From: a virus
DNA: 64,000 bases
Strand: one strand, 5' to 3'
Virus record (IMG/VR): IMGVR_UViG_3300031521_000027
Coordinates: 40,214 to 104,213 of that record
Part shown: positions 10,505 through 22,616 of the stretch, piece after piece
Numbering within the stretch: position 1 is the first letter of the stretch
How the letters are laid out: every line of letters begins with the position of its first letter
Made by a program: the position numbers and the translations under genes
Notes under the pieces: generated by a model
What the model saw: only the letters and a program-made list of their open reading frames with translations
Database searches by the model: none
What the model was told of the DNA's origin: nothing

Positions 10505-10535
10505 CTGAGGACATGGAGTTCAGCGGCGTATAAGT
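10505..10535 (+). promoter_or_regulatory. Phage class-II promoter (variant CTGAG-N15-GGCGTATAAGT)
   Basis: Same 20-nt element spacing as the other copies; upstream of AGGAGG and the TTG start of the helicase. Confidence 0.6.
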
Positions 10536-10554
10536 GGTCAGGAGGAATAATCCC

Positions 10555-12285
10555 TTGCCACTCAACTTTGACGTCCGGAACTTCACCGAAGCTCGCCGTG
10601 AGCAGCTCGCGTGGAGGATCCACCAGTCCGTGAACTGGAAGCTCCCGCCCCTGAAGGTGTGGAACTACGACCTGTGCCGCATCCATGCGCGCGGGTGGGT
10701 CGAGGAGATCCGTGACACCGACGGTGAGGTCAAGACCCACACCGTCTACGACCGGCCCAAGCCCGGCTGCCGGGACTGTGGGATCCACTTCCGCAGGCAC
10801 CAGCACATCGGGGTGGCGTGGCTCTATTTCAAGAAACACGCCCTGCTGGCTGACACCATGGGATCGGGCAAGACCACCGAGGCTGGCGGGCTGATCGCCA
10901 TGCTGATCGAGACCGGGGAGCTGTCCCTCTTCCGTGACAGATCCAGCGCCCACGGTGGCAAGGGTCGAGTCATCATCGTGCCCCGGTCCCCCGCCCTCCA
11001 CCAGTGGCGCACCGAGCTTCTCCGGATGATGCCCAGCCTGAACATCCTCGTCTCCGAAGGCACCCGCAAGCAGCGCACCCAGTTCTACCTCCAGCCGTGG
11101 CAGGTCCTCCTGATCGGGCCTGAGATGCTGCGCAACGACTACCAGCTGCTGGAGAACTTCGACCTCTCCCTCTTCCTCACCGACGACATCGACGCCCTCC
11201 GCAACCCCACCACCGAGACCTCCTACGTGCTGGACCGGATGGGTGCCCGGGGGGTCGAGGGCCTGCGTCCCGGCACCGACCGCTACGTCATCATGACCGG
11301 CACCCCCCTCCAGAAGCGCCTGCCCGAGCTGCACGCGGTGCTGGACGGCATCGGGGGCACCCTCGCGCTGGGCAGCATGGACTCCTTCGTCCACCGCCAC
11401 GTCCGCAAGGCCACCATCACCGAGTACGACCGGAAGTCAGGCAAGGACATCCGCAAGGAGGTCGTGGTCGGCTACCGGGACCTCGGTACGGTCAAGGCCC
11501 GGATCGCCCCGCTCGTGCTCCGCCGCACCGCCGCCGACCTCGACGACGTCGACCTGCCCACGATCATCCCCAACGACGTCATGCTCGACCTCTACCCCGT
11601 GCAGCGGGCCAAGTACACCGAGCTGCGCAAGGGCGTGCTGAAGATCATCCGCGAGGAGGGCACGCAGGTGAAGCGCCCCAACGCGCTGGCCAAGATCCAC
11701 TACGGTGCGGCCATCTGTGCAGGGCTCGCCGCGCTTGGGGAAGAGGACGGCCCCGGGACCAGCGTCAAGCTCGACTGGGTGGTCAACCAGCTCACCGAGG
11801 GTGGGCTCAGCGAGCGCGGCGAGAAGGTGGTCGTGTTCGCCAACCTGAAGAACACCGTCAGGGCCCTCCAGATCCGGCTCAAGGAGGAGGGTGTGGGCTT
11901 CGTCACGGTGTGGGGGCAGGAGAACGACAAGGTCAAGCGCGCAGCCTCACAGGAGCGGTTCTGGACCGACCCGAAGTGCAAGGTGCTGATCGGCACCAAG
12001 GCCATCGAGCAGTCCCTGAACCTTCAGGTCTCCCGGCACCTCGTCAACATTGACATGATCTTGAACCCAGCGAGAATGGAGCAGTTGGCCGGACGTATTC
12101 GCCGCGACGGCTCGGCCTTCCAGCACGTCTACGTGCACAACCTCCTGACCATCAATACGCAGGAGGAGAAGTACCTCCCCCTGCTGGAGCGTGAAGCAGC
12201 GCTGGCCGCGCACATCTGGGACGAGGATTCCCAGCTGTTCACTGCCCTCTCACCCTTGGCCCTTCTACAGCTCATTTCCGGATGA
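10555..12285 (+). CDS. SNF2-family SF2 helicase/ATPase
   Basis: ADTMGSGKTT Walker A, MTGTPLQ motif III, LRRT, SLNLQ, NPARMEQLAGRIRR motif VI; TTG start after AGGAGG (alternative GTG at 10534). Confidence 0.85.
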   Translation: MPLNFDVRNFTEARREQLAWRIHQSVNWKLPPLKVWNYDLCRIHARGWVEEIRDTDGEVKTHTVYDRPKPGCRDCGIHFRRHQHIGVAWLYFKKHALLADTMGSGKTTEAGGLIAMLIETGELSLFRDRSSAHGGKGRVIIVPRSPALHQWRTELLRMMPSLNILVSEGTRKQRTQFYLQPWQVLLIGPEMLRNDYQLLENFDLSLFLTDDIDALRNPTTETSYVLDRMGARGVEGLRPGTDRYVIMTGTPLQKRLPELHAVLDGIGGTLALGSMDSFVHRHVRKATITEYDRKSGKDIRKEVVVGYRDLGTVKARIAPLVLRRTAADLDDVDLPTIIPNDVMLDLYPVQRAKYTELRKGVLKIIREEGTQVKRPNALAKIHYGAAICAGLAALGEEDGPGTSVKLDWVVNQLTEGGLSERGEKVVVFANLKNTVRALQIRLKEEGVGFVTVWGQENDKVKRAASQERFWTDPKCKVLIGTKAIEQSLNLQVSRHLVNIDMILNPARMEQLAGRIRRDGSAFQHVYVHNLLTINTQEEKYLPLLEREAALAAHIWDEDSQLFTALSPLALLQLISG

Positions 12286-13028
12286 AAGCAGTGACAATGA
12301 CCGCCGCCACCCCCGTCCCCCTCTCCGACTACCAGAGCGAGTTGGTCAGGACCCACGTGGGCCTTGCCCAGAGCATTGCAATGTCTTTCTGGAAACGAGC
12401 CGCATCGGAAGTGGACCGCGACGAGATCGTGGCCATCGCCTATCAGGGGCTGATCACCGCCGCCCAGAGGTACGAACCCAACATCGTCCCGGAGAACGAC
12501 CCGGACGTGGCGCTGCCCCCTGTTGCACTGACGTTCGGCCAGTACGCCAAGCGCCGCATCGGGGGAGCCATTCAGGACTGGATGCGCCAGCTGGACCACG
12601 TCCCCCGCAGGCAGCGCACCATCTACAAGGACATGCAGGAGCTGGCCCCCGGCAGGAGCCCTGAGGAGACCGCAGAGATCCTCGGGATCGACGTCAACCG
12701 GGTCCGTGCGATCACCCACGCAGTCGAGTGCCCCCCGGTCTCACTGGACGACATGGCAGGCGACAGCGACCGGGGCAACATGGCTCCCCCAGCTGAGGGA
12801 GGCACCGAGGGATCAGTCGCAGCCCACATGCTTCAGGAGGCCATGGTCGAGGTCATGGAGGGGATGCCGTCGTTCGAGAAGTCGGTCATCGTCCTGCGGT
12901 ACTACATGGGCATGAGCTTCCCCCAGATCGCCGCCGAGCTGGGCTCCAGCGTGTCCACCGTCAAGGTCACCCACCAGCAGCAGATCCTGCTGATCCACGC
13001 CGCCATGGTCCAGACTGCGCGCTCCTGA
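12282..13028 (+). CDS. Group 3 (FliA/WhiG-like) RNA polymerase sigma factor
   Basis: GLITAAQRYEP, TFGQYAKRRIGGAIQDWMRQLDHVPR, PVSLD, VIVLRYYMGMSFPQIAAELG. Confidence 0.9.
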   Translation: MKAVTMTAATPVPLSDYQSELVRTHVGLAQSIAMSFWKRAASEVDRDEIVAIAYQGLITAAQRYEPNIVPENDPDVALPPVALTFGQYAKRRIGGAIQDWMRQLDHVPRRQRTIYKDMQELAPGRSPEETAEILGIDVNRVRAITHAVECPPVSLDDMAGDSDRGNMAPPAEGGTEGSVAAHMLQEAMVEVMEGMPSFEKSVIVLRYYMGMSFPQIAAELGSSVSTVKVTHQQQILLIHAAMVQTARS

Positions 13029-13281: not shown

Positions 13282-13533
13282 ATGGCTCACATCCCCAAGC
13301 CCTTCTCCCGTCCCAGCATCAGCCTCAACACCTCGGGCAGGCGCTGGGTCCAGACCCGCGCGTGGGACCTCGACACAGGGGACATCGTGCAGGACATGGG
13401 CATGGTCAAGGAGATCGAGAAGCACGTGACCACGACCAAGATCTCCTTCGCCTCCGGGCTGTCGTTCGTTTTCACAAACGACACCGTCATGCGCGCCTTC
13501 ACGCTTGGAGAGTCCGTTGGCATCAGCCTCTGA
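13282..13533 (+). CDS. Hypothetical protein
   Basis: Tightly packed ORF with phage-like codon usage. Confidence 0.7.
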   Translation: MAHIPKPFSRPSISLNTSGRRWVQTRAWDLDTGDIVQDMGMVKEIEKHVTTTKISFASGLSFVFTNDTVMRAFTLGESVGISL

Positions 13534-14986
13534 ACACTCCCAGATCGTCCTCTCGGCCATCTTGGCGGGCAGGCGCGATCTGCTGGAGAAGGCTGTCGCC
13601 CACCTGACGCCAGCCCACTTCCCGGAGAAGGTCCACGCCGACCTCTTCACCATGCTCATGCGCTTCTCGGACTACACCGGGGGCGCGGTCATGCCGCTGA
13701 AGTACCTCGACGACAACCTCCGTGGCCGCATGGAGCCGGGCAAGGCTCAGCTGTTCACCGAGACCTACGAGATGCTGTCGGAGACCACGACAGAAGATTC
13801 TGAGTTCGCGTGGTCCCTCCAGCAGCTGCGCGAGCTGGCTGCCGACAAGACCACAGGCGAAGCCCTGACTGAGGCCATGGAGATCCTGCGCCGAGGCAAG
13901 ACCATCGACAACCAGACCTATCAGGGCCACAACGATGCCCGCGCTCGCCTGCTGGAATCGTTTCAGGAAATCGACCGTGAGCTGGTTCGGCAGGACGCGC
14001 CGGAGGGGGACCTCGCAGACGAGGCCACCGAGATGAAGGCCGACTACGCCGAGCGGAAGAACGCGCGCCTCAAGGGTGTGTCCTCCGGCATCCGGTTCGG
14101 CATCGACGAGCTGGACCGCAAGATCGGTGGGCTCCAGCCGGGAGAGCTGGTGCTGCTCGCGGGCTACTCCAGCGACGGCAAGTCCTCCCTGTGCGTCCAG
14201 CTCGCGTGGAGCGCCGCCGTGGAGCAGGGACAGAACGTGGTCTTCCTGACCACCGAGACCCTGCGTCCCCAGATCCGCCGCAAGATCATCGCCCGCCACT
14301 CCAAGCTGCCGATCTTCGAGACACCCGAGGGCCTTAACACCCGGGATCTGAAGGCAGGCACCTTGACGGATGAGCAGGAACTCATCCTCCCCCGGGTGAT
14401 CGACGACCTCGCCAAGAACCCCGCCTACGGCAAGATCTACATCGCGCAGGTCCCTCGGGCGGCAGGCATCGCCAGCATCGAGCAGAGGCTGCTGCGGATC
14501 CAGCGGAAGTTCAACATCAAGCTGGTCATCGCCGACTACCTCGCGCTGCTGATCGCCGAGCGCAGACGCACCACGGCCCGGGAGGAGTACGCCGAGGTGC
14601 TGAAGAACGCCAAGCTCCTGTCGGTCGCCTTCGACAACGGGCGGGGAGTGGCCTTCGTGTCCCCGTGGCAGGTCTCCAGACAGCACAGGGAGGCCGCAGA
14701 GAACCTCGGGCAGTACACGTCCGCCGCGCTCTCCGAGACGGCTGAGGCGACGAACTCCTCCGACGTGATCGTCAGCCTGCTGGCCCCCACCGACAACACC
14801 GACCGGCACGCCGACGTCACCTTCCAGATCCTGAAGAACCGGGACGGCGAGACGGCCAACGGCATGATCGTCGAGGTCGACTACGCCACCTGTCACTTCC
14901 GCAGCAAGCGGATGCTGGGAGCCCTCGGTACGGGTGGTCTCGACTACTCCACCAACGGCACCATGGAAAGCCTGCTGAGCGCCTGA
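13517..14986 (+). CDS. dnaB: DnaB-like replicative helicase
   Basis: GIDELDRKIGGLQPGELVLLAGYSSDGKS, VIADYL, WQVSR, ILKNRDG; TTG start after GGAGAG (alternative 13505). Confidence 0.92.
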   Translation: MASASEHSQIVLSAILAGRRDLLEKAVAHLTPAHFPEKVHADLFTMLMRFSDYTGGAVMPLKYLDDNLRGRMEPGKAQLFTETYEMLSETTTEDSEFAWSLQQLRELAADKTTGEALTEAMEILRRGKTIDNQTYQGHNDARARLLESFQEIDRELVRQDAPEGDLADEATEMKADYAERKNARLKGVSSGIRFGIDELDRKIGGLQPGELVLLAGYSSDGKSSLCVQLAWSAAVEQGQNVVFLTTETLRPQIRRKIIARHSKLPIFETPEGLNTRDLKAGTLTDEQELILPRVIDDLAKNPAYGKIYIAQVPRAAGIASIEQRLLRIQRKFNIKLVIADYLALLIAERRRTTAREEYAEVLKNAKLLSVAFDNGRGVAFVSPWQVSRQHREAAENLGQYTSAALSETAEATNSSDVIVSLLAPTDNTDRHADVTFQILKNRDGETANGMIVEVDYATCHFRSKRMLGALGTGGLDYSTNGTMESLLSA

Positions 14987-16477: not shown

Positions 16478-16559
16478 TAAGTTGACCGCTTAGCGAGTGA
16501 CGGGCTCCCATTAAGGAGTCCGTCACTTGGCGTTTTACGAGAAACAAGCGGTCAACTTA
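16478..16559 (+). ncRNA. Three-way-junction structured element in the leader of the second sigma gene
   Basis: Perfect 14-bp outer stem TAAGTTGACCGCTT/AAGCGGTCAACTTA enclosing a 14-bp hairpin and a short hairpin. Confidence 0.5.
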
Positions 16560-16583
16560 TCGGTCACCCCATGGAGGATTTCT

Positions 16584-17252
16584 GTGCCCAGTCTTACCGT
16601 TTCCCCCCGCACCATCACGCAGGCCGGAAGGCCCTCATCGTCGAGGTATCCGGACTTCGTCCCAGCCAACTACACCGAGCTGTTCGACCACTACTACCCT
16701 TACGTCCGGGGCATCGTCTTCAAGTCCGGCATCGACTCCCAGAGCTGTGCGGACGTGACCATGTCCATCCTTGAGAAGTTCTTCGCCCACGACGTGCTGG
16801 CCGACTTCAACCCCGAGTTCACCTCCACCCATGGTGGGGTCACCCGCAAGGCCATGTTCCGGACCTTCCTGTCCGGCTTCGTCAAGATCTACGTCCGGCA
16901 CCACCGGGACCGCCAGATCATCACCAAGGCTCGCGAGGCCATCTCGCTCGACGCACCAGCCGGTGACGACAACACGTGGATGGACTACTACGGGGAGACC
17001 CACGTCGACACCTACGATCAGCTGATGATCGAGGATGCCGTCCTCACCGTGCAGGACCACCTTGCCACCCTCTCCGACCCCCGGGGCCGCTGCGAGATGC
17101 TGGACCTGTTCAACATGACCTTGGAGCACTCGGTCACCTACGGCAGCCCCAACGTTGAAATCCTGTCCCAGTACTTCGAGGTCTCCGAGACCACGATCCG
17201 GAACCGGCTGAAGGCCCTGCGCGCCGAGATCCATGAGGTCTTCGAGTCATGA
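16584..17252 (+). CDS. ECF-like sigma factor (sigma2 + sigma4 HTH)
   Basis: YTELFDHYYPYVRGIV...DVTMSILEKFF...FRTFL region 2; ILSQYFEVSETTIRNRLKALR HTH; GTG after GGAGG. Confidence 0.7.
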   Translation: MPSLTVSPRTITQAGRPSSSRYPDFVPANYTELFDHYYPYVRGIVFKSGIDSQSCADVTMSILEKFFAHDVLADFNPEFTSTHGGVTRKAMFRTFLSGFVKIYVRHHRDRQIITKAREAISLDAPAGDDNTWMDYYGETHVDTYDQLMIEDAVLTVQDHLATLSDPRGRCEMLDLFNMTLEHSVTYGSPNVEILSQYFEVSETTIRNRLKALRAEIHEVFES

Positions 17253-18025
17253 TCAAGATGCCCGTCACGGTGCTGGGCATGTTCGATGACCTGCCGCCGA
17301 TCTCGCTCTTCGTCGGGCCTGCGTCGGTCGGCAAGTGGACCATCGCTGAAGCCCTCGGTCGCCACTTCTACAACTCCTTCGGCGTCATCCGGGTCCGGGC
17401 CCTCACCATGGACGCCGCCCGGGACCTCACCGTGCTGTCCAACTTCTCCTCCCCCCGGCTGGTCATCGCCCGGCTCACCCGGTCCACGGAGGCAGCCCAG
17501 AACGTGCTGCTGAAGACGCTGGAGGAGTGCTCGACCACGGCCACCAAGTTCATCCTGATCGACACTGAGCTGCCCCCTGAGACGATCACCTCGCGGTGCA
17601 CCGTCTACCGCTTCCCGCTGCTCACCGACGCGGCTGTGGAGGAGATCCTGCTGAACCGGAACTTCAGCGCGGTCGAGGCCAAGAGGCTGGCACTGGCTGC
17701 CGGGGGGCAGATGCGCAACGCCCTCAATCGAGGCGATACGGTCGACACCAAGCAGGTCGTGCTGTCGGCCCTGCGTGCGATCACCGAGAGGGACCCCGAC
17801 ACTCTGGACGACCTCGCCGTGAAGTGGAGCGACGAGCACTCCGAACTCATGGTGACGCTATGCACCGAGGCCATCTCCGGGCGCTACCGGATCTTCAACT
17901 CTGAGGAGATCGAGGGCATCGGCAGGAAGCTGCCCCTGCGGATCCTGATCGCGCTAGGCCCCGGGATACGTCCGAGGCTGGTCGTACGCTCCAGCTTGAT
18001 GGGCGTGCTGAGGAGCGAGTGGTGA
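17249..18025 (+). CDS. Clamp-loader AAA+ subunit, Pol III delta-prime (HolB)-like
   Basis: LFVGPASVGK, EAAQNVLLKTLEE, FILI, ETITSRC (SRC arginine finger). Confidence 0.85.
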   Translation: MIKMPVTVLGMFDDLPPISLFVGPASVGKWTIAEALGRHFYNSFGVIRVRALTMDAARDLTVLSNFSSPRLVIARLTRSTEAAQNVLLKTLEECSTTATKFILIDTELPPETITSRCTVYRFPLLTDAAVEEILLNRNFSAVEAKRLALAAGGQMRNALNRGDTVDTKQVVLSALRAITERDPDTLDDLAVKWSDEHSELMVTLCTEAISGRYRIFNSEEIEGIGRKLPLRILIALGPGIRPRLVVRSSLMGVLRSEW

Positions 18026-18309
18026 GCGAAGAGCTGTGCGAGAAGACCGACATGCCGAAGTATTCGTGCGCCCACTGTCAGGGCATCAAGGAGGAACCCG
18101 TGGCTGTTTTCGGAAACGCTGATGTGCAGGAGTTCGAGCTGATCGGACGCCGCTTTCAGGCTGTCTACGGCGGGGTGTGCACGATCAACTTCGACCACAT
18201 CGTCAAGCGGCAGGACTGGGTCTCCAAGGTCCAGTTCTCCGACAACCCGATGCTGCCGGTGAGCGGTGTGGCCTGCGCCCAGTGCGTCCGGGTCCTGCCG
18301 CACGCCTGA
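18022..18309 (+). CDS. Small Cys-rich hypothetical protein
   Basis: CAHC, CxxxxxH and CAQC motifs; overlapping start and stop with neighbours. Confidence 0.65.
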   Translation: MSEELCEKTDMPKYSCAHCQGIKEEPVAVFGNADVQEFELIGRRFQAVYGGVCTINFDHIVKRQDWVSKVQFSDNPMLPVSGVACAQCVRVLPHA

Positions 18310-18776
18310 TGAGACCTACACAGGAAATCCGGCGCTTCTTCGCCAAGACCCTTGATGAAGACCGGGGGTACATCACTCCCTGCGTGATCTGGACCGGCAG
18401 GAAGGTGAATGGGTACGGGGTGTTCGATCTCCAGCGCGATGACAACTCCGGCCCGCGTGCTGTGAAGGCCCACCGGTACTCCTACGGACTGCTTCACGGA
18501 GAGCAGCACATCCGCAGCGCCGTGGTGGGTCGCGAGGACGAGATTGACCACCTCTGCTTGCAGCGGGACTGCGTCAGGGAAGGTCATCTTGAACTCGTGA
18601 CCCTGAAGGTCAACCGCCAGCGGATGCACGACGTCCACCGGACAGAGATGTGCAAGAGAGGTCTCCACCTTCGCGCTGAGTTCGAGCGGATCAAGTCGAC
18701 CGGCGCTCCGTACTGCTTGGGGTGTCAGAGGATCAACGATGCTAAGCGTCGTCCTCGTAAGAAGAGGGAGGTCTGA
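18309..18776 (+). CDS. HNH endonuclease
   Basis: CVIWTG..NGYG, AHRYSY, IDHLCLQRDCVREGHLELVTLKVN, C-terminal CKRGLH/CLGC. Confidence 0.9.
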   Translation: MRPTQEIRRFFAKTLDEDRGYITPCVIWTGRKVNGYGVFDLQRDDNSGPRAVKAHRYSYGLLHGEQHIRSAVVGREDEIDHLCLQRDCVREGHLELVTLKVNRQRMHDVHRTEMCKRGLHLRAEFERIKSTGAPYCLGCQRINDAKRRPRKKREV

Positions 18777-18777
18777 C

Positions 18778-19773
18778 ATCGCCACCTTCAGTGGCTGGCT
18801 GACCGGGACCAAGAAGACCCCTGAGCCCCGGCAGATCACGTGGGTGTGCGGGCCGGAGGTCGTGCTTGTGGAGGAGGTCGTCCGGAGCGTCTCGGAGTTC
18901 CTCGCCCCCGAGCCGTGGAACCGGGTCAGCCTCGTGGCCGGAGATGATTCTGAGCGGGACATCTGGGCCGCGCTGGACCAGCACCCGATGGACACCTCAC
19001 CCCGGCTGGTGATCGTCCGGCACGTCGAGAAGATCCATGAGTGGGACCGCTTCGTGCAGTGGGTCAAGGACCGCTCGCGCAACCCCCGGACCTACGTGGT
19101 CATGGTCTCCTCCGAGGCGGCTGTTCCGAAGACCGAGCCCACCCCGGAGGAGCGCAGACACGGTACCCGCCCGGAGCCCCTCCCGCACATAGCCTGTATC
19201 GGATCCAAGGGCCACGTGGTGGAGTGCAAGCCGTTCACCTCGGCCACCGCGCTGCGCTCCGTGGAGTGGGTCCAGTCGAAGGCCCCCATGCGGGACGGCA
19301 TCGCCCGGCACCTGCTCACCCGCTCGAACTGGAACCTGCGGCTGGTCCGCGACATCTGCCTGAAGCTCGCCGTGTTCCCCGGTGAGATCACCATCTCAGT
19401 GGTCAACACCCTGCTGGCCGAGCAGCCCCGGGACAGCTTCACCGACGCCCTGCTGGCGCTGGACCGCAAGACCGCACTGCTCGCCGCCGAGTCGATCCCT
19501 CGCGAGGAGGTCGGGCGCATCATCGGCCTGCTGGACGCGAAGCTCGACAAGGCTGGGATGATCCATGACATGCAGGTGGACCACAAGTCACCCGGCGACA
19601 TGGCCAAGGCTCTGGGTCCGCAGGCGTTCCTGCTCACCGAGCTGATGAACGTCTCCAAGCACTACAACGCCAAGCGCAGGCTCGCGATCCGCAGGACGCT
19701 GGCCGTGGTCGACGAGGCCTACCGCTCCGGGCAGACAACGGGTCTGCTCGAAGTTGTCGTGGCGTTCTGGTGA
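18778..19773 (+). CDS. Clamp-loader subunit, Pol III delta (HolA)-like
   Basis: ITWVCGPEVVLVEEVV...ALDQHPM..SPRLVIVRHVEKI N-terminus and helical collar; start uncertain (ATC at 18778 after GGAGG, or ATG at 18739). Confidence 0.7.
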   Translation: MATFSGWLTGTKKTPEPRQITWVCGPEVVLVEEVVRSVSEFLAPEPWNRVSLVAGDDSERDIWAALDQHPMDTSPRLVIVRHVEKIHEWDRFVQWVKDRSRNPRTYVVMVSSEAAVPKTEPTPEERRHGTRPEPLPHIACIGSKGHVVECKPFTSATALRSVEWVQSKAPMRDGIARHLLTRSNWNLRLVRDICLKLAVFPGEITISVVNTLLAEQPRDSFTDALLALDRKTALLAAESIPREEVGRIIGLLDAKLDKAGMIHDMQVDHKSPGDMAKALGPQAFLLTELMNVSKHYNAKRRLAIRRTLAVVDEAYRSGQTTGLLEVVVAFW

Positions 19774-19784
19774 GGCGTACCAGT
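19754..19784 (+). promoter_or_regulatory. Phage class-II promoter (TTGTC-N15-GGCGTACCAGT)
   Basis: Exact downstream element, upstream of the polymerase operon. Confidence 0.7.
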
Positions 19785-19818
19785 AAGTGGAGCACCCCGC
19801 AGATCAAGGAGAACTGAC

Positions 19819-20010
19819 ATGGACTGGGCAACGTACTGGATCCTGCTGGCGCAGGCAGGCATCGCTCTCGTAGCGCTGGCCGTGCCGCTGTCGTTCGCCA
19901 TCGCGGTGGCAGGAGCAGGTGTCAAGGCAGCCATGAAGAGTGCGGGCTCAGCTGAGGTCCCGCAGGCTCCCCTGACCCAGAACACCTACACCTTCCCGCC
20001 GACCAAGTGA
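19819..20010 (+). CDS. Small membrane protein
   Basis: Hydrophobic N-terminal half, AAGGAG RBS. Confidence 0.65.
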   Translation: MDWATYWILLAQAGIALVALAVPLSFAIAVAGAGVKAAMKSAGSAEVPQAPLTQNTYTFPPTK

Positions 20011-22616
20011 CCACTCGCAACTACGGAGCCCTCCGGGAGGCCTACGGGTCCAAGGGTGCGGTCTCCTTCATCGACCGGATCACAGCCAGCGGTAAGCCCT
20101 TCGACTTCGACATCGAGGCGGGCTACACCGGGGACGACAAGAAGGGTGTCTCCCTCCAGCAGTACCACCCCGACTACCTCGTGGTCGGCATCTCCTTCAC
20201 GGTCTCCACCGAGTGGGCCCGCTACATCCCCTTCGCCCACGACAGCGGCGGCAACATCGACGACATCGTCCCGGTGGCCCGCGCCTTGTGGCGGCTGCTC
20301 AGCTCCGGGCAGGGGATCGCCCACAACGCAGCCTACGAACTCAAGGGCATGTCCCGGTGGTTTCGTGAAACGTTGTGGAACGACGACGAGCTGGGCGAAG
20401 AGATCCGACGCACCAAGGGCATGTTCCCGATCCTCGCTGACACGATGCTGCTGGTCTGGCTCGCCGCCTGCTACGACCCGCTCCGCGTCGGCAAGGACCT
20501 GAAGTCGGTGGCCAAGGCCGCGTTCGGCATGGAGATGACCCACTTCGACGACCTCTTCCCCACCACTGACACCGACCTCGGCCCGGCCATGAAGCGGGGT
20601 GGCAAGCCGTACATCCGGTTCAACACCCGCAACTCCTACAGCCCCGTGATCGTGGGCTACGCCTGTGAGGACTCCGTCGCCTCCTTCATGGTCTGGGAGA
20701 AGCACTACGAGGCCCTCAAGGACACGTTCATCTTCAAGACCGAGATGGCCCTGCTCCCGGGACTGGTGGAGATGGAGGCCGGGGTCATCGATCCGGAGAC
20801 CGGGGTCGCCTCCGGCAACATGTTCTTCCACTGGCCCAACGTCCGCAAGAAGTCCGAGGAGGCCCTGCGCTTCGCCACCCTCATGGGTGAGGAGATTCAG
20901 GACCAGCTGGGCAAGCGGCTGAACAAGACCATCAACATCAACCTGAACTCGGTCCCGCAGCTGGCCAAGGTCCTGTTCGACGAGAAGCCCGACGGCCTCG
21001 GCCTGCCAGTGAAGGTGCGCTCGGAGAAGACCGGGGCACCCAGCACCAGCGACGACGCCCTGAAGGTGATTGCCAAGTCCGACCCGATCATCAAGATGAT
21101 CCTTGAGTACCGGCAGGTGGTGAAGCTCAACGGGTCCTACCTGACCAAGTTCATCAACGAGCTGGGCTACTCCGGCACCGGCTACGTCTTCCCCAACCAC
21201 AACCAGTTCGGTGCCCTCACCGGGCGGCTCTCGGTGGATCAGGTCAGCTACCAGCAGTGGCCCAAGCCGTACCACTTCCAGCTGCTGTCCGGGCTCACCT
21301 TCGACCTCAACTTCCGGGACCTGTTCATCTCCCCGGACCACTTCCGGATCGTCGGCTTCGACTACGCCAACGTGGAGATGCGGATCGCCGGGGCCCTGTC
21401 CGGTGAGCGCAAGATCATCGACGCCTTCAACAACGGGCTCGACCTCCACAAGTCCACCGCCTCGGCCACCTTCAAGGTCAGCCTCGAAGATGTCACCAAG
21501 AAGCAGCGGCAGTCGGCCAAGACCCTGAACTTCGCCACCCTCTTCGGGTCCGGTGCAGGGAACATCGCCGAGATGCTGACCAGCCCCTCCGACCCGGTGA
21601 CCAAGGAGGACGCCGAGCAGATGCTGGAGGACTACTTCGCTGGGTACCCAGCGCTGGCCGATTGGATCGCCAGCCAGAAGGCGCACGGTCGTGAGTCCAA
21701 GGAGGTCCGCACCCACTTCGGTCGGCTCTACACCATCTGGGAGCACTACCAGCCCAAGGAGTGGATCAAGGCCAAGGGTGACCGGATGTCGGTCAACGCA
21801 CCGATTCAGGGCACCGCCGCCGACATCCTCAAGATCGCCATGGTCCGTGCCAAGAAGGCCATCAAGGAGGCCGGGCTGGAGGACCTCGTCCGGATGACCC
21901 TGACCGTCCACGACGCGCTGGAGTTCCTCGTCCACGAGTCCGTCTCCACCCAGCAGGTCATCGACCTGATCGAGCCCTGCGTCAACTTCCCGGTGCCCGG
22001 CTTCCCGCTGGAGATCCGGGCGGACTGGCACGAGGGCTACCAGTGGGGTGCCCAGACCGAGGTCCGGCTCGACGAGAACAAGCAGATCAAGAGCTTCGAC
22101 ATCGAGGTGGAGCTGCCGTGGCTGAAGGAGTCCCACTACTGGGAGGGCTCCACGCTGCACGAGGTGCTGGACCAGTACTACGCGTGGGAGGCAGGCTTCT
22201 TCGGCTTCTCCGCCCCGTACTACGCCACCCGCAACCCAGACTTCTCCCTGCCCGAACCCGCAGATGCCTCCCAGCAGCCCGACGTTGCCGCTGTGGAGCC
22301 TGAGGAGGAGGACCCGGGGTGGTTCCACAGCGCGGAGCACAACGCCGCACTGCTGCCCCCCAAGACCGCCACGGTGACCATCTCCGAGATGCCCGACGAG
22401 GAGCAGTGGCTGAAGTTCACCACCTACCTCGACTTCCGGCAGGGTGTGGACACGGTCAAGGTCGAGACCCCGGAGGGTGTCGTCACGCTCGACGGCACGT
22501 TCCGGATCTCCCCGGACGATCAGCCAGCCATCAGCCTCATCCTCGGAGGGGCCGGTCTGGTGATCGCTGACGACGTGGCCGACGCCGACGACGTGATGGC
22601 AGGGATGCTGGTATGA
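20007..22616 (+). CDS. polA: Family A DNA polymerase with 3'-5' exonuclease and a C-terminal extension
   Basis: Exo FDIEAG/HNAAYE/YACED; TGRLS; motif A FDYANVEMR, motif B RQSAKTLNFATLFG, motif C TVHDAL; no 5' nuclease domain. Confidence 0.95.
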   Translation: MTTRNYGALREAYGSKGAVSFIDRITASGKPFDFDIEAGYTGDDKKGVSLQQYHPDYLVVGISFTVSTEWARYIPFAHDSGGNIDDIVPVARALWRLLSSGQGIAHNAAYELKGMSRWFRETLWNDDELGEEIRRTKGMFPILADTMLLVWLAACYDPLRVGKDLKSVAKAAFGMEMTHFDDLFPTTDTDLGPAMKRGGKPYIRFNTRNSYSPVIVGYACEDSVASFMVWEKHYEALKDTFIFKTEMALLPGLVEMEAGVIDPETGVASGNMFFHWPNVRKKSEEALRFATLMGEEIQDQLGKRLNKTININLNSVPQLAKVLFDEKPDGLGLPVKVRSEKTGAPSTSDDALKVIAKSDPIIKMILEYRQVVKLNGSYLTKFINELGYSGTGYVFPNHNQFGALTGRLSVDQVSYQQWPKPYHFQLLSGLTFDLNFRDLFISPDHFRIVGFDYANVEMRIAGALSGERKIIDAFNNGLDLHKSTASATFKVSLEDVTKKQRQSAKTLNFATLFGSGAGNIAEMLTSPSDPVTKEDAEQMLEDYFAGYPALADWIASQKAHGRESKEVRTHFGRLYTIWEHYQPKEWIKAKGDRMSVNAPIQGTAADILKIAMVRAKKAIKEAGLEDLVRMTLTVHDALEFLVHESVSTQQVIDLIEPCVNFPVPGFPLEIRADWHEGYQWGAQTEVRLDENKQIKSFDIEVELPWLKESHYWEGSTLHEVLDQYYAWEAGFFGFSAPYYATRNPDFSLPEPADASQQPDVAAVEPEEEDPGWFHSAEHNAALLPPKTATVTISEMPDEEQWLKFTTYLDFRQGVDTVKVETPEGVVTLDGTFRISPDDQPAISLILGGAGLVIADDVADADDVMAGMLV

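Follow-up and report, generated by a model that had tools for sequence, protein, structure and literature searches.

We describe a replication module encoded in a 64,000-nucleotide stretch of viral DNA (the window), which comprises bases 40214-104213 of the 104-kb IMG/VR virus record IMGVR_UViG_3300031521_000027, a record estimated to be 84% complete. The source phage has a genome of about 125 kb and is related to Microbacterium phage Magritte, being a Magritte-like actinobacteriophage. In bacterial replicases, the family C polymerase is tied to the clamp loader via a contact between the tail of the alpha subunit and tau. Family A polymerases are thought to act by themselves or with improvised processivity factors, of which thioredoxin in T7 is an example. 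The region analyzed here (positions 17249-22616 of the window) holds five plus-strand genes, which encode in order a HolB-like delta' clamp-loader subunit, a small Cys/His-rich protein, an HNH endonuclease, a HolA-like delta subunit and a family A DNA polymerase (PolA) with a long C-terminal extension, the last domain of which resembles the tau-binding domain of the Pol III alpha subunit (DnaE). Megablast comparison of the whole region with 50,697 phage records returned no match.

The polymerase gene (P0003; 20007..22616, plus strand) encodes a protein of 869 amino acids (aa) that combines a DEDD-type 3'-5' exonuclease, a Pol I core reaching to about residue 684 and a C-terminal extension of 185 aa. 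The core matches PF00476 (E 4e-77, residues 306-680), and a Pfam search with the whole protein at E 0.1 detected nothing apart from this family. The polymerase motifs A (DYANVEMR), B (RQSAKTLNFATLFG) and C (VHDALEF) lie within the PF00476 match, at 21360..21926 on the plus strand, and are invariant in the homologues. The proofreading motifs Exo I (FDIEAGY), Exo II (HNAAYELKG) and Exo III (YACEDS), read from the sequence at 20106..20675 on the same strand, are invariant in 10 homologues, with their acidic residues intact; PF01612 misses the window PolA and matches one of its homologues, and the exonuclease call is based on inspection of these motifs. The Klenow fragment aligns to PolA at E 8e-50, and Klenow, Taq and BF all align up to residue 680, which corresponds to position 576 of 580 in the Bacillus Pol I large fragment. 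Since the aligned part stops four residues short of the end of the large fragments, we place the canonical Pol I end near residue 684 of PolA, leaving about 185 extra residues. Many PolA genes of this clade (P0007, P0031, P0061, P0065, P0087, P0092) contain inteins with LAGLIDADG or HNH homing endonucleases; in P0007 an insertion of 340 residues sits just before TLNFA in motif B, and some PolA proteins of the clade hold two inteins.

Twenty distinct relatives share the conserved C-terminal extension, with identity falling to about 25%, and the parts of the extension were defined from the alignment of 20 extensions and an AlphaFold2 model (mac55de941c98) with a mean predicted local distance difference test score (pLDDT) of 78.7. 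Subdomain 1 (residues 684-749; 22056..22253, plus strand), made up of three beta-strands and two helices, is modelled at a pLDDT of about 80-90, varies in size among relatives and gives weak fold matches (Z 4.3-4.6) to the AP2/GCC-box, dsRBD and Tn916-Int-N nucleic-acid-binding folds. It leads into a disordered acidic and proline-rich linker (22254..22313, plus strand; the acidic/Pro stretch SLPEPADASQQPDVAAVEPEEED is at 22245-22313), with a pLDDT below 50, highly variable alignment columns and a length ranging from about 10 to 150 residues across relatives. An acidic-P-x-W-x-H motif (PGWFHSAEH; 22314..22340, plus strand), conserved in most relatives and modelled as a short helix with low to medium confidence, sits just before the terminal domain (residues 786-856; 22362..22574, plus strand), which has a beta-alpha-beta-beta-alpha-beta topology and matches the C-terminal domain (CTD) of Pol III alpha by both fold and profile. 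The extreme C-terminus is an acidic amphipathic tail, VADADDVMAGMLV (22575..22613, plus strand), with the consensus D.D.L.EG[ILM]xL-COOH, also conserved in most relatives and modelled as a low-confidence helix. A prior sequence-only reading of this region had noted an acidic/Pro linker and a terminal part of about 90 aa after motif C, and both are indeed present, with the linker running to 22313 and an end of about 90 residues following it. By position and conservation, the P-x-W-x-H motif is a candidate for holding the clamp, and the acidic tail is a candidate short binding motif, for instance for the clamp.

Two AlphaFold2 models of the terminal domain, computed from phage sequences only and without templates, reach a pLDDT of 85-97, with 93-97 for this domain in the model of the extension. 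For both models, the top seven Foldseek matches are all Pol III alpha chains (2HPI, 3E0D, 4IQJ A-D and 5FKU), of which 2HPI is the best (E 2e-3, probability ~1.00; 79-82 aligned columns). An independent run of VIA-align against 48,161 representative chains again placed the Taq alpha subunit first (2HPI_A; Z 7.8, root-mean-square deviation 2.7 Å, 73 residues, chain positions 1127-1205) and its E. coli counterpart second (5FKU_A; Z 5.8, root-mean-square deviation 3.1 Å, 75 residues, chain positions 1076-1160), followed by KaiB at Z 4.1-4.3; across both models the Z values for Pol III alpha span 5.6-7.9. The aligned ranges coincide with the tau-binding domain of alpha, which Fernandez-Leiro et al. 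(PMC4703070) delimit to residues 1079-1160 in E. coli.

Profile-profile comparison points in the same direction. When the phage alignment was compared by hhalign with the C-terminal 110 residues of 21 DnaE proteins (E. coli and 20 bacteria from a range of phyla), 71 columns aligned in register (score 29.8, P 8.8e-5, probability 59.8%), versus scores of 11.6 and 11.3 for reversed controls and 8.3 +/- 1.5 (maximum 14.1) for 100 column shuffles. Both sets have in common the pattern L..L..hPG..V.l...llG...v.l. We conclude that the terminal domain is very probably a remote homologue of the tau-binding domain of alpha. The sequence-only reading had likened it to the actinobacterial DnaE CTD; the likeness to the DnaE CTD was borne out by Foldseek, VIA-align and hhalign, with Pol III alpha chains ranked first by two structural aligners on two models, but an identity of about 14% is too low to infer a donor or a specifically actinobacterial origin. 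Searches of the extension against the PDB, with a single sequence and with a profile, returned chance-level matches only, the best being the Npl3 RNA recognition motif (E 0.16), and the ESM Atlas yielded no usable match for the terminal domain. A HMMER profile of the domain retrieved 191 proteins at E <= 1e-3 among 1.84 billion representatives, consisting of PolA proteins (many with inteins), short fragments and some repeat proteins. All those longer than about 230 residues are PolA, save for the repeat proteins, whose multi-stretch matches were judged spurious.

The two loader genes lie directly upstream of the polymerase. The delta' gene (HolB-like, P0001; 17249..18025, plus strand; 258 aa) matches PF13177 (E 3.7e-7, over the cut-off), TIGR00678 holB (E 8.8e-13) and the clamp-loader family phrog_5846 (E 1.5e-11). 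Its product has a degenerate Walker A motif (GPASVGKW) and a replaced Walker B (VIARLT), and keeps the SRC arginine-finger motif (residues 115-117, nucleotides 17591-17599); this combination is the delta' signature, and the protein is classed as an inactive AAA+ module. The delta gene (HolA-like, P0002; 18739..19773, plus strand; 344 aa) matches TIGR01128 holA (E 1.2e-14; residues 35-333, nearly the entire protein) and, weakly, PF21694, and a delta profile built from 17 relatives matches the solved delta subunit 3ZH9_B (E 2.7e-9, residues 10-319 versus 6-324). Since both proteins score under the NCBIfam equivalog cut-offs, we regard them as divergent homologues. The profile matches thus confirm, at the same positions, the HolB-like gene with its SRC finger and the HolA-like gene that had been noticed just upstream of the family A polymerase.

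Within the window, the sole match to TIGR02397 or PF13177 is delta' itself, in agreement with the sequence-only reading, which had found neither a beta clamp nor a full DnaX there. Both are encoded in the same virus record, upstream of the window. A DnaX-like ATPase (G000:C1:7391-8518; L006 1303-2430) matches TIGR02397 at E 2e-72 and 244 bits, just below the 250-bit cut-off, and is ATPase-competent as judged by its motifs (Walker A GPSGVGKTT, Walker B VLDEAH, SRL). A DnaN-like clamp of 408 residues (G000:C1:3234-4460) matches PF00712 at 32.6 bits, over the cut-off, and TIGR00663 at E 9e-20 along residues 73-377. The record contains no match to the DnaE family C polymerase model PF07733, and its single PF00476 match is the window PolA, which is thus the sole polymerase found. 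Because DnaX and DnaN occur in the same virus record, the loader can be wholly phage-encoded, and the part-host, part-phage clamp loader that had been proposed from the sequence is not needed and was rejected. By sequence, DnaX, delta and delta' would be enough to form a DnaX3-delta-delta' clamp loader.

The phage DnaX is gamma-sized, with 361-375 aa in all eight sequences examined (375 aa in the window phage; the others are from relatives L111-L117). The C-terminal 50 or so residues lie beyond the match to the profile of domains I-III; there a variable Pro/Ala linker leads to a conserved terminal peptide of nine residues, [RK][RK][LM]SL[SA][DE][LM]Q, which closes 8/8 of these proteins; neither tau domain IV (DnaB-binding) nor tau domain V (alpha-binding) was found in phage DnaX. 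Among 20 Actinomycetota tau proteins (L234-L253), long C-terminal regions with low-complexity linkers precede a shared acidic end of the type LLxxELGAEVVEE. The end peptide of phage DnaX was compared with these 20 tau ends, and the likeness, being loose only, was given no weight. Two unpublished genomes (G033, G050) were counted only, and none of the conclusions draws on them.

Scans of viral and metagenome contigs recovered about 30 loci of this PolA clade, and the order delta', small Cys protein, delta, PolA is kept in every related locus with sufficient upstream sequence, so that the loader subunits accompany this type of PolA wherever the sequence extends far enough to tell; a lack of such co-occurrence would, by the sequence-only reading, have counted against its idea. 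The complete relatives comprise six virus records (124-136 kb; 99-100% complete). All six, and Magritte as well, encode a DnaN-like protein and a DnaX-like one (361-412 codons), show a second delta'-like match and lack DnaE. Magritte (OR553905, 133 kb, a singleton; PMC11663251) is the sole isolated relative, cultivated on Microbacterium foliorum, and tblastn of the phage terminal domain against the 50,697 phage records matched Magritte only. Its PolA carries the same terminal domain and is 48% identical to the window PolA over residues 1-846; identity is 54% for delta, 54% for DnaX and 41% for delta', and the counterpart genes (gp4, gp62, gp67 and gp69) follow the same order. In the Magritte GenBank record the DnaX, delta' and delta homologues (genes 4, 62 and 67) carry no label other than 'ASCE ATPase', the polymerase is entered as 'DNA polymerase I', and the genome paper (PMC11663251) makes no mention of a clamp or clamp loader. 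The window phage encodes a DnaB-like helicase (13505-14986) upstream of the delta'/delta/PolA block, and in syntenic Magritte a primase, a protein binding single-stranded DNA (SSB) and a RecA-like recombinase are annotated at matching positions, SSB and RecA lying downstream of the PolA block.

Two further genes, which the sequence-only reading had not mentioned, lie between delta' and delta. The first (P0004; 18019..18309, plus strand) encodes a Cys/His-rich, zinc-ribbon-like protein of 96 aa that is present at this place in nearly all related loci, with a conserved core (...C.I...H...GVAC..C...), and has no Pfam, PHROG or NCBIfam match; it could be an extra loader subunit or a replisome accessory protein. 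The second (18309..18776, plus strand) encodes an HNH homing-type endonuclease of about 155 aa (phrog_826, E 4e-27; weak matches to PF13392 and PF05551) and is inserted exactly at the ATGA stop/start overlap of P0004 and delta. Among the related loci, this insertion is seen only in the window and in the distant relative L019; it is missing in 90%-identical relatives, and in Magritte no HNH gene separates the small Cys protein gene from delta. In the 90%-identical relatives delta begins with MATFS at the ATGA overlap, whereas the window has ATC at that old start, and we therefore place the delta start at the ATG at 18739, which lies in the HNH gene, near its 3' end. The window delta consequently carries a 13-residue N-terminal leader created by the HNH insertion. 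The HNH endonuclease is not part of the replicase. Elsewhere in the window, a SNF2-family helicase (PF00176/PF00271) and, after it, a sigma-70-type factor (regions 2 and 4) occupy 10534-13025, just upstream of the DnaB-like helicase, and a 241-aa protein at 16527-17252 has a weak helix-turn-helix match only.

On balance, we consider it more likely than not that the phage has built a Pol III holoenzyme-type replicase around a Pol I-type polymerase, with the grafted domain docking PolA on the phage's own clamp loader. In this arrangement the grafted domain would tie PolA to the loader by analogy with the contact between alpha and tau, and the loader would load the phage's clamp at primers and pass it on to the tethered polymerase, which would use it for processive and possibly coupled leading- and lagging-strand synthesis. 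Given that phage DnaX lacks tau domains IV and V, its conserved C-terminal peptide is the likely docking partner and may act as a minimal tau. Passages in PMC1888804 and PMC4703070 describe the unstructured extreme C-terminus of E. coli tau as binding alpha, and the C-terminal domains of E. coli and Taq tau are unrelated, yet both bind the alpha tail (PMC4703070). The docking domain hence tolerates different partners, which makes a peptide-only "mini-tau" plausible. Carried further, this leads to a picture that we put forward tentatively: the tau-binding domain of alpha would be a portable module captured by a family A polymerase, with tau reduced to a gamma core and a peptide of about nine residues, yielding a minimal phage-encoded PolA holoenzyme with coupling of loader and polymerase and possibly of leading and lagging strands. 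A co-fold of the PolA terminal domain with the C-terminal 58 residues of DnaX scored 0.21 versus a mark of 0.32, without controls, which has no bearing on binding in either direction.

Several observations weigh against docking on the phage loader through an alpha-type domain. The similarity is remote (about 14% identity to DnaE, hhalign probability 60%), a Z of 7.8 falls within the range that VIA-align calls "middling", and ferredoxin-like folds are common, so that convergence is conceivable. No DnaE was among the HMMER matches of the phage profile in 1.84 billion proteins, and HMMER alone gives at most 13.6 bits between the terminal domain and DnaE; the link to DnaE is consequently drawn from fold and profile-profile comparison. 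PF20914 (DNA_pol_IIIA_C) has no match in the virus genome even at E 10, but this model is narrow: it matches 1/24 diverse bacterial genomes (21 of 23 have DnaE), E. coli being the only control at the cut-off, and its silence is uninformative given that it misses 23/24 bacterial genomes. On the side of the partners, phage DnaX is without the tau domain that normally binds alpha, the contact between PolA and DnaX is an analogy, and inspection of PolA revealed no canonical clamp-binding motif (QL[SD]LF or QLxLxL). Three variants of the CTD (L020, L021, L036) are without the LGGA motif and the acidic tail, and as the one matching DnaX tail that was checked looks unchanged, there is no visible co-variation between CTD and DnaX tail. 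Finally, with the record 84% complete, this genome could conceivably hold a further polymerase, which is absent from the six complete relatives.

The genome evidence favours docking on the phage's own loader over three other explanations of the same data. The domain is homologous to a bacterial tau-binding module, phage DnaX (375 aa) has neither tau domain IV nor V, and actinobacterial tau keeps long C-terminal regions with a conserved end motif; the terminal domain might therefore bind the CTD of host tau, either plugging PolA into the host loader and replisome or competing with host DnaE1 and stopping host replication, which comes near the part-host idea of the sequence-only reading. Such a role for host tau appears quite unlikely to us: all subunits for an own loader and clamp are phage-encoded and strictly conserved with this type of PolA, which makes host tau unnecessary, some partner is required for the conserved peptide that ends phage DnaX, and the sequence of the domain is very distant from that of any host DnaE, which speaks against recent mimicry of a host interface.

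The domain might instead dock elsewhere (on the phage clamp, DnaB helicase, primase, SSB or DNA) or dimerise the polymerase, its likeness to alpha reflecting a shared fold or an ancient origin without a shared partner. Ferredoxin-like domains are versatile, the match is moderate (Z 5.6-7.9; hhalign probability 60%) and the extension has two further conserved short motifs, P-x-W-x-H and the acidic tail. Yet two aligners, each on two models, place Pol III alpha ahead of all other ferredoxin-like folds, the profile match extends over the domain's full length, and both the position at the end of a replicative polymerase and the strict co-occurrence with a DnaX-type loader fit the logic of alpha and tau, so that we deem a different partner unlikely. 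It is also conceivable, if very unlikely, that clamp and loader are employed elsewhere, for example in late transcription or recombination-dependent repair, and that PolA replicates without them, with the extension as an intrinsic processivity or DNA-binding appendage. A passage in PMC12867686 describes clamps used for transcription in T4 (gp45) and Mu, clamp-free processivity is known for phage PolA, for example through thioredoxin in T7 or UDG-like domains (PMC3201878), subdomain 1 has a weak likeness to small folds binding double-stranded nucleic acid, and about 50 kb separate DnaN and DnaX from the PolA module. Against this stand the conserved block formed by delta' and delta directly upstream of PolA within a replication module (DnaB upstream; SSB and RecA downstream), and a grafted domain that derives from the one polymerase working with this type of loader.

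It thus looks as if a docking module had passed from one polymerase family to another, unrelated one. An alpha docking domain acquired by a PolA that strictly co-occurs with beta, DnaX, delta and delta' would show that the coupling interface of the replisome is modular and transferable between unrelated polymerases; if true, this would be the first natural replisome-coupling interface to have moved between non-homologous polymerase families. The lineage would also provide a small replisome for study, with tau possibly reduced to a peptide, and the cultivation of Magritte on Microbacterium foliorum makes the idea directly testable. It is not a rare lineage, the domain profile finding 191 clusters in public metagenomes, and our results suggest a better annotation for the actinophage genes now labelled 'ASCE ATPase'.

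Compared with the CTD of alpha (5FKU/5FKV; Taq 2HPI, 3E0D and 4IQJ; PF20914), the phage domain has the same fold, shares the hPG turn and the llG...v.l end, and likewise sits at the very end of a replicative polymerase found together with DnaX, delta, delta' and beta. It differs in belonging to a family A rather than a family C polymerase, in having upstream of it a beta3-alpha subdomain and a disordered acidic linker instead of an OB domain and an internal QxxLF clamp motif, and in having a cognate DnaX without tau domains IV and V. Among other phage answers to the need for processivity, the T4 replicase consists of the family B polymerase gp43, the PCNA-like trimer gp45 and the RFC-like loader gp44/62, which is untethered to the polymerase, and there the C-terminal tail of the polymerase binds the clamp. 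T7 gp5, a PolA, relies on host thioredoxin for processivity and has no clamp. To our knowledge, neither the T4 nor the T7 replicase borrows a Pol III alpha module.

A hybrid replisome of PolA with a bacterial clamp and loader is not new, since PolA occurs with a polIII-beta homologue and loader subunits in Ma-LMM01 and RSL1 (PMC3201878), with DnaN (gp10) and the clamp-loader subunits gp17-gp19, including DnaX, in Streptococcus phage Dp-1, and, in the annotated records of Nodularia phages, with a beta clamp of bacterial type and loader subunits of DnaX type. No DnaE was found in the two records searched, those of Dp-1 and Nodularia phage vB_NpeS-2AV2. Both systems differ from the one described here in the polymerase: the Dp-1 PolA stops six residues past the Pol I profile and the Nodularia PolA ends at the canonical C-terminus, in neither case with a DnaE-like domain. 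Dp-1 DnaX, moreover, ends without linker or peptide, and the joint absence of the PolA extension and the DnaX peptide fits the docking idea, if weakly, as a single contrast. A literature search found no paper in which a family A polymerase carries the tail domain of Pol III alpha, and it is this graft, a DnaE-like domain on a family A polymerase, that is the new part of the system.

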